Below, in pieces: positions 13,535-16,856 of a DNA stretch of 64,000 nucleotides. Each line of letters opens with the position of its first letter. The first letter of the stretch is position 1. The notes beneath the pieces are model-generated. The model was not told the origin of the DNA. It worked only from the letters and a program-made list of their open reading frames with translations, and did no database searches. The position numbers and the translations under genes are program-made. Source of the DNA: Escherichia coli (GTDB taxonomy: Bacteria; Pseudomonadota; Gammaproteobacteria; Enterobacterales; Enterobacteriaceae); the NCBI RefSeq assembly GCF_003018235.1, contig NZ_CP027437.1; one strand, 5' to 3'.

Positions 13535-13708
13535 TTAAAACAGTGAAAACAACAGCGCCACCGGGAAACTCATCGGCCATGTTGCCCCCACCAGAAAGGC
13601 GCTTAAGAAACGGATGCGTTTCTTATCGTGAGAAAGAAACCAGGTGATAAGAAATGCGATTGCTGCCATAACCGCATAAAAAACAAGCATGTGTTGATAG
13701 AGAGACAT
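13535..13708 (-). CDS. ortT: orphan small membrane toxin OrtT (YdcX)
   Basis: 57 aa from ATG at 13708: MSLYQHMLVFYAVMAAIAFLITWFLSHDKKRIRFLSAFLVGATWPMSFPVALLFSLF. Confidence 0.85.
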   Translation of the reverse strand: MSLYQHMLVFYAVMAAIAFLITWFLSHDKKRIRFLSAFLVGATWPMSFPVALLFSLF

Positions 13709-13902
13709 GTACGGGCGTCCAGCCAGATGAATAAAACGCGCGCAAATATGCGTCATTTTTTGACGTACATCAAGTTTTTTAACCGGTTTGAGAAAAAAAC
13801 ATCAAACAGCAACTTGCCCTTATCCATCTTCAGAATGAGTATTATTGCGGATTTTCTTAACCCGTACTATACACATAGGGGCAATGATAAAAGGTGGCAA
13901 AA

Positions 13903-13998
13903 ATGAATGTTTCCAGTAGAACTGTAGTACTGATAAATGTCTTTGCTGCTGTTGGTTTGTTTACTCTTATCTCTATGAGATTTGGCTGGTTTATTTGA
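13903..13998 (+). CDS. yncL: small membrane protein YncL
   Basis: 31-aa ORF MNVSSRTVVLINVFAAVGLFTLISMRFGWFI with AAGGTGG Shine-Dalgarno. Confidence 0.7.
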   Translation: MNVSSRTVVLINVFAAVGLFTLISMRFGWFI

Positions 13999-14020
13999 TG
14001 TAGTGATTTTGCACGCAGCA

Positions 14021-14055
14021 CGTACTGTCAGAGAAATCAGTGCTCTGACAGTACG
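14021..14055. repeat. perfect 13-bp inverted repeat (stem-loop) downstream of yncL
   Basis: CGTACTGTCAGAG-AAATCAGTG-CTCTGACAGTACG. Confidence 0.7.
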
Positions 14056-14399
14056 CAAGATCATCTCATACTCTCCAGGTTTACAACATTATCCTTAATA
14101 TTTACTTCTTTTTGCTGACATCTACATTGAAATAAGTAGAAAACATCCCCCTACTGCCGTCTATACAGACAGCTTACTGATTCAAAGGGAACCTTGTTTT
14201 CACATTTTGCTATCATCAATACTTTAGACGCGCGGGAGTCTATAAATGCTTTATACTTTCAGGGAATAAAGTAAATATAAAAAGATGGCGTAAATTATAT
14301 GCATGGCAGGATGATTGCGACCTCCTTGATGACGCTGTCCCATTGAAATTGCAAACCCCGCACTGGTTATCTTGCCCATTTATCATGCAGAACAGACAA

Positions 14400-15209
14400 T
14401 TATAGGTCTCTGAATATCTCAGAAAGATTGAATTTTTTATAGTCCATCTCTTGAATATTTCCATTTGATATCAATCGATTCATCTCTTCAACAAAATAAT
14501 TTATATCATCACATTTGTTATTATCCGGAAGATATGAGTAATTATAATTCCACCACTTTATTCTCAACAATTCATCAATAACATTTGAATCAAATCTAAA
14601 TCTGATTATTTTTGCAGGAACTCCAGCAACTATGGCATATGGGGGCACATCTTTGGTAACAACAGAATTGGCAGCAATAACAGCACCATCACCTATTGCG
14701 ATGCCACCTTTCAATACAACATCATTTCCTATCCAGACATCATTTCCTATAATCGGATTTTCAGGTTTGGTAATGAATGGTTTCAATGTCCAGCTACGTT
14801 CAAACTCACTCTTAGCAAACTTATCAAATTCACCGTTATAAGTCATCATGTGAGTAGTAAAACGATTCAAAGGATGATTTCCACCCATTATTTTTACATT
14901 TGATGCAATACTACAAAATCGACCTATATGTATATTCCCTGTAAAATGACAGGTCGGGAATGAAAAAGCGCCGACACTGGAGAAATTTTTTACAGGCATT
15001 GTTGAATATTCTTCAGCAATAACATTATCTTCAATTGTTATCTTGTCACCTTTTGAGAAAAGAAATAAATTCCTTTCTTTATACGACTTCTTCCCCTTAT
15101 GATTTAAAAAGATTTTATTATCCATACAAAACTCAAAGTGTTTTTTCGTCCACCTGAAGGTAAGGGTTTTATTTTTATCTTCCGTGAATTTATACAATTG
15201 AACTTTCAT
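14400..15209 (-). CDS. xenobiotic acetyltransferase (XAT) family hexapeptide-repeat acetyltransferase, Vat/CatB-like
   Basis: 269-aa ORF with IGRFCSIA...MGGNH and IGNDVWIGNDVVLKGGIAIGDGAVIAANSVVTKDVPPYAIVAGVPAKIIRFRFDSNVIDELLRIKWWNY, closely resembling streptogramin A acetyltransferases; AT-rich gene. Confidence 0.7.
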   Translation of the reverse strand: MKVQLYKFTEDKNKTLTFRWTKKHFEFCMDNKIFLNHKGKKSYKERNLFLFSKGDKITIEDNVIAEEYSTMPVKNFSSVGAFSFPTCHFTGNIHIGRFCSIASNVKIMGGNHPLNRFTTHMMTYNGEFDKFAKSEFERSWTLKPFITKPENPIIGNDVWIGNDVVLKGGIAIGDGAVIAANSVVTKDVPPYAIVAGVPAKIIRFRFDSNVIDELLRIKWWNYNYSYLPDNNKCDDINYFVEEMNRLISNGNIQEMDYKKFNLSEIFRDL

Positions 15210-15431
15210 TGTTATTACTTCTACTTATAAATTATTAGGTTAATAACGATACTCTAAAGCCTTATGCGAATCAACTATGACAGGATGAAAAATCACCAAC
15301 ATACATTTAGATCATAATAACTGCCTAATTTTTCCGCTAGTTATTAATGTAATCATTCTGATACTTAATCACCATTACACTCAGAACCTAAAACGATAGT
15401 GGCCGCCCTATAACAGCCACTAACATTTAAC

Positions 15432-16856
15432 TTAATGTTTAACCATGACGTGGCGGACGACGGTGTAATCCTCCAGCCCATAAAGTGACATATCCTTGCC
15501 GTAACCAGAAAGTTTCTGCCCACCGTGCGGCATTTCACTTACCAGCATGAAATGGGTATTGACCCAGGTACAACCATATTGCAGCCGTGCGCTGACGCGA
15601 TGCGCCCTGCCCACATCTTTCGTCCATACCGAAGATGCAAGTCCGTACTGGCTGTCATTCGCCCAGTTTACCACCTGTTCTTCGTTGTCGAAGAGTGTAA
15701 CACTCACTACTGGACCAAATACCTCTTTTTGCACGATGGCATCGTCCTGTAATGCGCCAGCCAGCAGCGTCGGCGCATAGTAATAGCCATTACCCTTGCG
15801 CTTTTCACCGCCAGTGATCACTTTGATGTGCCCTGTCGCTTTCGCCTCTTCTACTGCCTTGCTGACGCGTTCGAGATGCGCCAGCGAGCTTAAAGGTCCA
15901 AGCTCCGTAGACTCGTCATCCGGCGCACCAGATTTTAACGTTGCCACCGCAGCACCCAGTTTTTCCACCAGCGTATCGTAAATGCCTTTTTGCGCGTAGA
16001 TCCGACAAGCCGCTGTACAATCCTGTCCGGCATTGTAATAGCCAAATGTACGTACACCTTCGACCACTGCTTCAATATCCGCATCATCAAAAACAATCAC
16101 TGGCGCTTTGCCACCAAGTTCCATATGAGTACGCTTAATGGACGGCGCAGTATGGCTGATGATGTGTTCCCCAGTGGCGATAGAGCCCGTCAGCGACACC
16201 ATCCGCACTTTAGGATGTCCGGTCAGCGGATCGCCCACCGTTTTGCCTCTGCCAAACAGTACGTTAATCACGCCTGCCGGGAAGATATCTTTCGCCAGCT
16301 CTGCCAACTTCAACGCTGTCAGCGGGGTAATTTCTGATGGTTTAAGCACTACGCAGTTCCCTGCCGCCAGCGCCGGAGCCAGTTTCCACGCAGCCATCAT
16401 CAGCGGATAATTCCACGGTGCGATAGAAGCCACGACCCCCAACGGATCGCGACGGATCATCGAAGTATGACCTTCAAGATATTCACCTGCCGCCAGACCA
16501 TTCAGACAGCGCGCCGCACCAGCGAAAAAGCGAAAGACATCAACAATCGCCGGGATTTCATCATTGAACGCACTATGCAGCGGTTTGCCACAGTTACGGG
16601 ACTCCAGTTCGGCTAAAACCTGACCATTTTCTTCGATAACATCAGCCAGTTTCAGCAGGCATTCCGCACGCGCTTTCGGCGTGGTTTGCCCCCATTCGGC
16701 AAATGCTGCATCTGCCGCGCGCACAGCAGCATCGACCTGCTCTGCGGATGCCTCGGCAATCTCCAGTAAAACGTCCCCCGTTGCCGGATTATAAACAGGC
16801 TGTTTTTCCCCTTCGCCGCTAACCAGTTCTCCGTTAATCAGTAACTTATGTTGCAT
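15432..16856 (-). CDS. patD: gamma-aminobutyraldehyde dehydrogenase
   Basis: 474-aa aldehyde dehydrogenase [40 protein letters not shown]... Confidence 0.9.

Follow-up and report, generated by a model that had tools for sequence, protein, structure and literature searches.

A long-lived single-gene islet between yncL and patD in Escherichia coli encodes a putative XAT-class acetyltransferase with a possible role in envelope glycan decoration

What is encoded by the AT-rich DNA that separates yncL from patD in some strains of Escherichia coli, and on which substrate might its product act? The question arises from a 64,000-nucleotide stretch of the E. coli contig NZ_CP027437.1 (assembly GCF_003018235.1; hereafter, the window), in which an earlier note made from the letters of the sequence had remarked on about 1.4 kb of AT-rich DNA between these two genes, which are near neighbours in K-12. 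This observation was accurate: the yncL-patD spacer is 1,433 bp here compared with 96 bp in a K-12 derivative, and the GC content is 0.28-0.38 over positions 13700-15500 compared with 0.48-0.57 in the flanks. Alignment of filled and empty sites delimited the insert proper, missing from K-12-type genomes, as 1,337 bp (positions 14100-15436). It carries, on the minus strand (14400-15209), the gene for a 269-amino acid hexapeptide-repeat protein, WP_001595727.1, which RefSeq names ‘CatB-related O-acetyltransferase’; this accessory gene is already annotated but uncharacterised, and its enzyme class is known. The best reading of this protein, suggested by sequence comparisons and by the genomic contexts of its relatives, is that of an orphan O-acetyltransferase of an envelope glycan, which we consider plausible rather than probable.

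Our results showed that the islet is genuine, having both a deviant composition and a variable presence at a fixed site. Its flanks were matched in 5,415 of 5,426 complete E. coli genomes. The insert was present in 1,154 of the 5,426, the remainder having an identical 464-bp empty configuration, so that the gene is not universal at this position. A query with the islet only matched 1,158 of the 5,426 genomes, every time at the yncL/patD site, and of the 60 islet-carrying genomes that were listed, almost all had a coding sequence (CDS) annotation at the matching position. Strain 746 (NZ_CP023353), isolated from a dog, was 100% identical to the window over positions 13800-15600. Carriers include strains of O111:H8 and O121 (from record titles), which are Shiga-toxin-producing serotypes, and of O177:H21 (from the strain designation), and Shigella flexneri records also carry the gene. 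In the plasmid (PLSDB) and phage collections, no genuine plasmid and no phage record carried it. Apart from distant Vat-like genes, the one match was NZ_CP141089.1, a PLSDB record of 4.94 Mb that contains the whole islet and is clearly a chromosome mislabelled as a plasmid. Scans of IMG/VR found no close relative, the best match having 39% identity.

By sequence comparison, the protein is a left-handed beta-helix enzyme of the xenobiotic acetyltransferase (XAT) class. Pfam Hexapep domains were found in it, and its repeats fit a left-handed beta-helix. A phmmer search against solved structures returned VatA and VatD (E ~1e-29 to 1e-28; VatD, E = 1.6e-29), then CatB (E ~1e-27 to 1e-24), with ApmA next, and the AlphaFold model, which has a predicted local distance difference test score of 90.8, gave VatA, VatD and CatB as the best Foldseek matches in the PDB. 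VatD, VatA and CatB are therefore the nearest solved relatives, as expected from the Vat/CatB-like core described before. The architecture of the XAT class and the role of its catalytic His have been established (PMC7885111). In the islet protein an extended loop at about residues 108-150 carries H112, the conserved His position of the class, with GGNH112P aligned to GANH82R of VatD, and His112 is the candidate catalytic residue. H112, W159 and the tryptophans of the KWW motif (W219 and W220) were invariant in 45 family members, and its C-terminal RFRF..IKWW motif (residues 203-230) is shared with VatA, VatD, CatB and ApmA.

The N-terminal extension had been put at about 95 residues in the earlier note, which was an overestimate. 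Alignments began at query residue 61 opposite residue 28 of VatD, at residue 59 opposite position 23 of the Vat hidden Markov model (HMM) and at residue 76 opposite position 40 of the CatB HMM, and these offsets indicate a true N-terminal extension of about 35 residues (33-36). A further C-terminal extension of about 22 residues was found relative to Vat and CatB. Both extensions are conserved in the family, the N-terminal one with a FRWTKKHxEFC motif and the C-terminal one as helices, its length across the family being about 22-40 residues. No PDB chain, ApmA included, matched the N-terminal 90 residues at E < 0.3, and the C-terminal extension had no detectable relative among solved structures.

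Although the protein belongs to the XAT class, it is neither a Vat, a CatB nor an ApmA, because all of the model scores lie well below their cut-offs and because the position of VatA Tyr42 is occupied by a variable Thr69. The scores were 126.1 bits for Vat (NF000311; cut-off 300), 105.1 bits for CatB (NF000490; cut-off 350) and 79.8 bits for ApmA (NF000084; cut-off 550), the last match covering the core only (residues 70-229). VatA and VatD share with the islet protein the XAT fold, the His loop (H112 corresponding to VatD His82 and VatA His87), an NDVWIG motif and the C-terminal RF..KWW helices, with 33-34% identity over ~170 residues, but they lack the ~35 N-terminal and ~22 C-terminal residues that are added here. 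CatB and PaXAT have the same fold and catalytic loop at 28-33% identity, a resemblance from which the RefSeq name derives, and again the E. coli protein has extra terminal segments. ApmA is of similar length (274 amino acids) and also combines the XAT core with an additional N-terminal region. However, the two N-terminal regions have no detectable homology: that of ApmA is ~82 residues with four strands and two helices, whereas the E. coli protein has ~35 extra residues (~58 before the Vat-aligned core), modelled as one strand and one helix. An oxyanion-stabilising role has been assigned to VatA Tyr42 (PMC7885111), which aligns with VatD Tyr37 and ApmA Tyr102; the same column holds T, M, R, N or S in the family of the islet protein, in a comparison made by sequence alignment only, with a shifted Tyr67 being possible. 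Of the residues that the earlier note had proposed to compare, the catalytic His is accordingly shared with VatD, whereas this Tyr is not.

Which proteins, then, are its closest kin? Full-length homologues were found in many Enterobacterales and in Gram-positive bacteria, and they form a group that we call ‘long XAT’ proteins (RefSeq ‘CatB-related O-acetyltransferase’, 250-290 amino acids), with the full-length architecture of the E. coli protein and whole-chain TM-scores of 0.75-0.87 in members from Enterobacterales, Firmicutes and others. Relatives that share the extensions had 36-56% identity over 91-100% of the query and scored 166-276 bits, compared with 81-106 bits for Vat, CatB and ApmA. 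The architecture is widespread and uncharacterised, and its genomic contexts range from glycan clusters to orphan loci.

Several of these contexts point to polymer synthesis. A Pectobacterium homologue (51% identity) lies in the middle of the waa cluster for the lipopolysaccharide (LPS) core, where WaaA was confirmed at 862 bits; an Enterococcus homologue (39%) is in a TagF/TagGH/LytR-type polymer cluster of the teichoic-acid or polysaccharide type; a Brochothrix homologue (41%) overlaps the GtfA/GtfB glycoprotein glycosylation genes; and a metagenomic homologue (41%) is in a KdsA/KdsB/KpsF capsule-type cluster. A Vibrio relative adjoins LPS heptosyltransferase II, and other relatives adjoin a pyruvyl transferase or a glycosyltransferase. 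Other homologues are associated with phages: that of Kluyvera (52%) directly follows tail-fibre and tail-fibre-assembly genes in a P2-like prophage, one on a viral contig is flanked by tail-spike and endolysin genes, and that of Providencia (55%) and a GT52 glycosyltransferase gene are divergently oriented in a prophage/defence hotspot. In Providencia rettgeri this hotspot varies by strain, holding DarT/NADAR genes (DarTG-like) in some and, in others, an integrase together with a reverse transcriptase and an ATPase. The long-XAT module was also seen in fusions, with an ATP-grasp protein in Sphingobium (1,013 amino acids) and with a glycerophosphodiester phosphodiesterase in Lactococcus (663 amino acids), among the AFDB50 matches A0A0S3EYZ9 and A0A0V8E142. 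These Sphingobium and Lactococcus fusions could help to identify the substrate of the family.

The glycan reading is ranked above its rivals because the relatives in glycan clusters are more similar to the islet protein than are Vat and CatB, and share its extensions. According to this reading, the islet would carry one functional gene, presumably expressed, for a soluble and presumably trimeric acetyl-CoA-dependent O-acetyltransferase, in which His112 on the extended loop would act as the general base. Enzymes of the XAT class are homotrimers with active sites at the interfaces of the subunits. The natural acceptor would be a hydroxyl group on a sugar of an envelope glycan, or of a precursor of one, rather than an antibiotic, with the LPS core or another conserved surface polysaccharide as the most plausible target. 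In Enterobacteriaceae the gene would travel as single-gene cargo, in some genera within prophages, while at yncL/patD of E. coli it is an old presence/absence polymorphism shuffled by recombination. NeuO of phage CUS-3, WbbJ, WcaF and OatWY offer precedents, being soluble hexapeptide acetyl-CoA enzymes that decorate surface polysaccharides, and they are detectable relatives of the islet protein. NeuO is single-gene prophage cargo, and the same appears to hold for the homologues of Kluyvera and Providencia. The likeness to these enzymes is limited, as only the last beta-helix coils align with NeuO (E ~3e-10) and WbbJ (70 bits, the cut-off being 243), and the models for the WcaF family (NF007797, 48.5 against 192) and TIGR04008 (40.6 against 326) also scored below their cut-offs. 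Furthermore, the E. coli gene lies outside any glycan cluster or prophage, and a tandem-repeat search found no phase-variable tract like that of NeuO.

If this reading holds, a strain-variable decoration could affect phage adsorption, serology and host recognition. A more specific proposal is that the long-XAT enzyme adds an undescribed O-acetyl decoration to the LPS core or another conserved surface glycan in about one fifth of E. coli and in S. flexneri, some Salmonella and Citrobacter, and that the polymorphism is kept by phage or immune selection; we regard this as possible but rather doubtful.

Several observations weigh against assigning the protein to an envelope glycan. The link comes by analogy from the context of homologues, in a subfamily without a characterised member. 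The orthologues with at least 71% identity stand alone and occupy a different locus in each genus (Citrobacter, Salmonella, Atlantibacter and Cedecea), the Salmonella one adjoining proBA and effector and phage remnants, and the E. coli and Rahnella genes are also without glycan genes nearby. Among curated models, the best scores were those of Vat, CatB and TIGR03308, with WbbJ, LacA and Maa scoring lower. To our knowledge, O-acetylation of the LPS core has not been described in E. coli. The occurrence of the gene in strains of several O-serogroups (O111, O121 and O177) makes a role specific to the O antigen unlikely.

The first rival is that the protein is a latent antibiotic- or xenobiotic-modifying enzyme of the Vat, CatB or ApmA kind, which would acetylate a hydroxyl or amine of a natural product, possibly of a drug class new to this group of enzymes, and whose pocket the N-terminal segment would reshape, as happens in ApmA. 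Such an enzyme would be consistent with the nearest solved structures and curated models being Vat, CatB and ApmA, with the conserved catalytic His and C-terminal XAT motif, and with the gene being, like many resistance genes, a mobile single-gene cargo that stands alone and spreads horizontally. In ApmA, moreover, an N-terminal addition to the XAT fold made a new substrate class (PMC7885111). However, the scores are far under the curated antimicrobial resistance (AMR) cut-offs, the N-terminal 90 residues are unlike ApmA or any solved chain, the position of VatA Tyr42 and ApmA Tyr102 is not conserved, and the gene was found neither on true plasmids nor in phage records. More similar relatives lie in glycan clusters, and this comes close to the outcome that the earlier note had set against its own suggestion of an antibiotic-modifying homologue, namely best matches among sugar-pathway enzymes: the relatives at 36-56% identity surpass Vat and CatB at ~33%. 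The homology to Vat and CatB in that suggestion stands, whereas we consider the proposed function unlikely. E. coli is intrinsically insensitive to streptogramins. In some GenBank records this protein, or its orthologue in Salmonella, bears the name ‘antibiotic acetyltransferase’, to which curated AMR models give no support. As it falls short of all curated AMR cut-offs and its nearest relatives in architecture are associated with glycans, an assay would be needed before the protein is classed as a resistance determinant.

The second rival is a cytoplasmic housekeeping or detoxification acetyltransferase that would resemble Maa or LacA, act on free sugars or small metabolites and play no part in the envelope. 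Both of these enzymes are detectable relatives, the context is stand-alone in six genera, and the neighbours in Citrobacter and Atlantibacter include genes for nucleoside or sugar uptake (Tsx, major facilitator superfamily and phosphotransferase system). Nevertheless, the matches of the LacA and Maa models are confined to the final beta-helix coils, at 60 bits (cut-off 347) and 53 bits (cut-off 314), respectively; the neighbouring genes differ in every genus; and the homologues with 36-56% identity sit in polymer-synthesis clusters rather than in catabolic operons. We therefore judge this alternative to be clearly unlikely.

According to the third rival, the islet is a silent, decaying relic, that is, silenced AT-rich foreign DNA without current function that is heading for loss, as in ~79% of genomes. 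The 222 bp between the start of the acetyltransferase gene and patD are very AT-rich (GC 0.28 in this upstream region), most genomes lack the gene or have lost it, and IS1 insertions or deletions and one frameshift affect it in some strains. The pattern of divergence argues in the other direction. The ratio of nonsynonymous to synonymous divergence (dN/dS) was 0.07-0.14 both within E. coli and in comparisons with Citrobacter and Cedecea, and the open reading frame (ORF) was intact in all six alleles examined. Furthermore, the non-coding stretch 3' of the gene was 5-6% diverged between alleles, compared with 2.6-4.9% for the CDS, and the non-coding DNA of the islet changes 2-3 times faster than the CDS. 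With these results and the CDS annotations noted above, decay is quite improbable. A role as an accessory transferase of phosphonate metabolism (TIGR03308 family) is effectively ruled out by score and genomic context, since this nominally top NCBIfam match reached 131.2 bits against a cut-off of 201.65 over the core only (residues 92-228), and no phn genes lie nearby in E. coli or at any homologue locus examined.

How long has the gene been at this site? Synonymous divergence (dS) among six filled alleles was up to 0.25 for the acetyltransferase gene and up to 0.20 for the adjacent patD. Because its dS is as deep as that of patD, its dN/dS is about 0.1 and the non-coding DNA beside it diverges faster, the gene is an old resident under purifying selection, and neither a recent acquisition nor a pseudogene. 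Horizontal acquisition, which the earlier note had suggested, can accordingly be upheld for the distant past, but not as a recent gain. The divergence of the islet gene and that of patD were correlated (r = 0.70, over 15 non-independent pairs). Strict co-divergence of the two was considered and rejected, as this correlation is only moderate and strains GF60 and WL297 are clear recombinants. In WL297 the yncL segment is identical to that of the window while patD is 4.4% diverged, and in GF60 patD is strongly diverged (dS 0.13-0.19) while the islet gene is near that of the window (dS 0.04). These mosaic flanks indicate recombination breakpoints inside or beside the islet.

The low GC content of the gene (32-37%, which is less than that of the flanks in most of the Enterobacterales hosts examined) reflects the gene family and not a recent foreign origin, because the orthologues in most of these hosts share it. 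Low GC is typical of surface-polysaccharide genes, and we have counted it for the glycan reading. A cross-genus blastn comparison of the islet flanks did not identify a common vehicle; homology ended at the CDS, except for ~80 bp upstream in Citrobacter, and the non-coding stretch 3' of the gene (14106-14399), the divergence of which between alleles is neutral-like, had no homology in other genera. Relative to the earlier note, our view is changed in the size of the extension, the flanking repeats, the age of the polymorphism and the preference for a glycan over a resistance enzyme.

The junctions bear on how the two states arose. The earlier note had reported no flanking direct repeats, but an imperfect 20-nt repeat (family D1; 16 of 20 positions identical) brackets the insert, with the left copy, AACATTATCCTTAATATTTA, at 14085-14104 and the right copy, AACATTTAACTTAATGTTTA, at 15422-15441, both given on the plus strand; the right copy overlaps the stop and last codons of patD. 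Empty sites contain a single chimeric copy, and six of them, from divergent backgrounds, have exactly the same junction. At the left junction, a 13-nt patch (14075-14087) differs by 7 substitutions between the haplotypes, reading CCAGGTTTACAAC in 3 filled alleles and TACGATCTGCAAT in 6 empty sites. From the shared junction and this patch, the filled and empty states each look like a single historical event, later spread between backgrounds by recombination. As the patch tracks the state in all 9 genomes, the haplotypes are not linked by a clean indel at the repeat alone. The direct repeats fit a target duplication and a repeat-mediated deletion equally. No Escherichia outgroup was found among the matches listed from species-representative genomes, the patterns drawn from the family alignment being generic to all XATs.

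Strains MY732 (filled) and NCTC10444 (empty) have in common a GTG to ACT change in a hairpin loop at 14040-14042 and an A to T change at 14063. Background single-nucleotide polymorphisms thus persist to within ~35-60 bp of the junction, whatever the islet state, a pattern that simple recombination of long tracts, of the filled or the empty allele, does not readily explain.

The core genes on either side were placed from the ORF list and the RefSeq annotation of the strain 746 locus. On the left, yncL (13903-13998, plus strand) has its stop at 13998 and is followed by a hairpin with a perfect 13-bp stem (14021-14055; inverted repeat I8). This hairpin is present in filled and empty sites and belongs to the core flank, outside the islet; in K-12 it is the sole hairpin between the convergent yncL and patD. 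On the right, patD (15432-16856, minus strand) has its stop codon at 15432-15434. Just downstream of it, within the insert, is a terminator-like hairpin with a T-run (15397-15422, minus strand), which is conserved in MY732 but has been rearranged in the allele of WL297. A consensus scan found a sigma-70-like promoter match, TTTAGA-16-AATAAT (15231-15258, minus strand), 22 nt upstream of the start codon of the acetyltransferase gene, although promoter-like matches in the region were no commoner than in shuffled sequence.

In agreement with the earlier note, no integrase was found at the islet in the ORF list or RefSeq annotation, and these also contained no transposase or other mobility gene and no tRNA target there. 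The islet had no Rfam match to an RNA family and no PADLOC match to a defence system, and its PHROGs matches were to families of unknown function only.

In K-12, patD and yncL have been listed as an overlapping-transcription ‘excludon’ pair (PMC12288877). In islet carriers patD has its own terminator-like hairpin within the insert, and it is the acetyltransferase gene that now converges on yncL. Filled and empty haplotypes may therefore regulate yncL and patD differently, because of the 1.4-kb separation, the new patD hairpin and the new converging gene. The locus cleanly illustrates how the presence or absence of one gene can persist as an old polymorphism and, at the same time, rewire a convergent gene pair.

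Finally, the gene is occasionally destroyed by IS1 or by frameshift. IS1 replaces the islet except for its left 189 bp in cM2a and interrupts the acetyltransferase gene in two amphibian isolates (H78 and H79), while one further strain has a 2-bp frameshift in the gene. IS1 also adjoins patD in one K-12 laboratory stock, and it has thus been recurrently active at the yncL/patD site.

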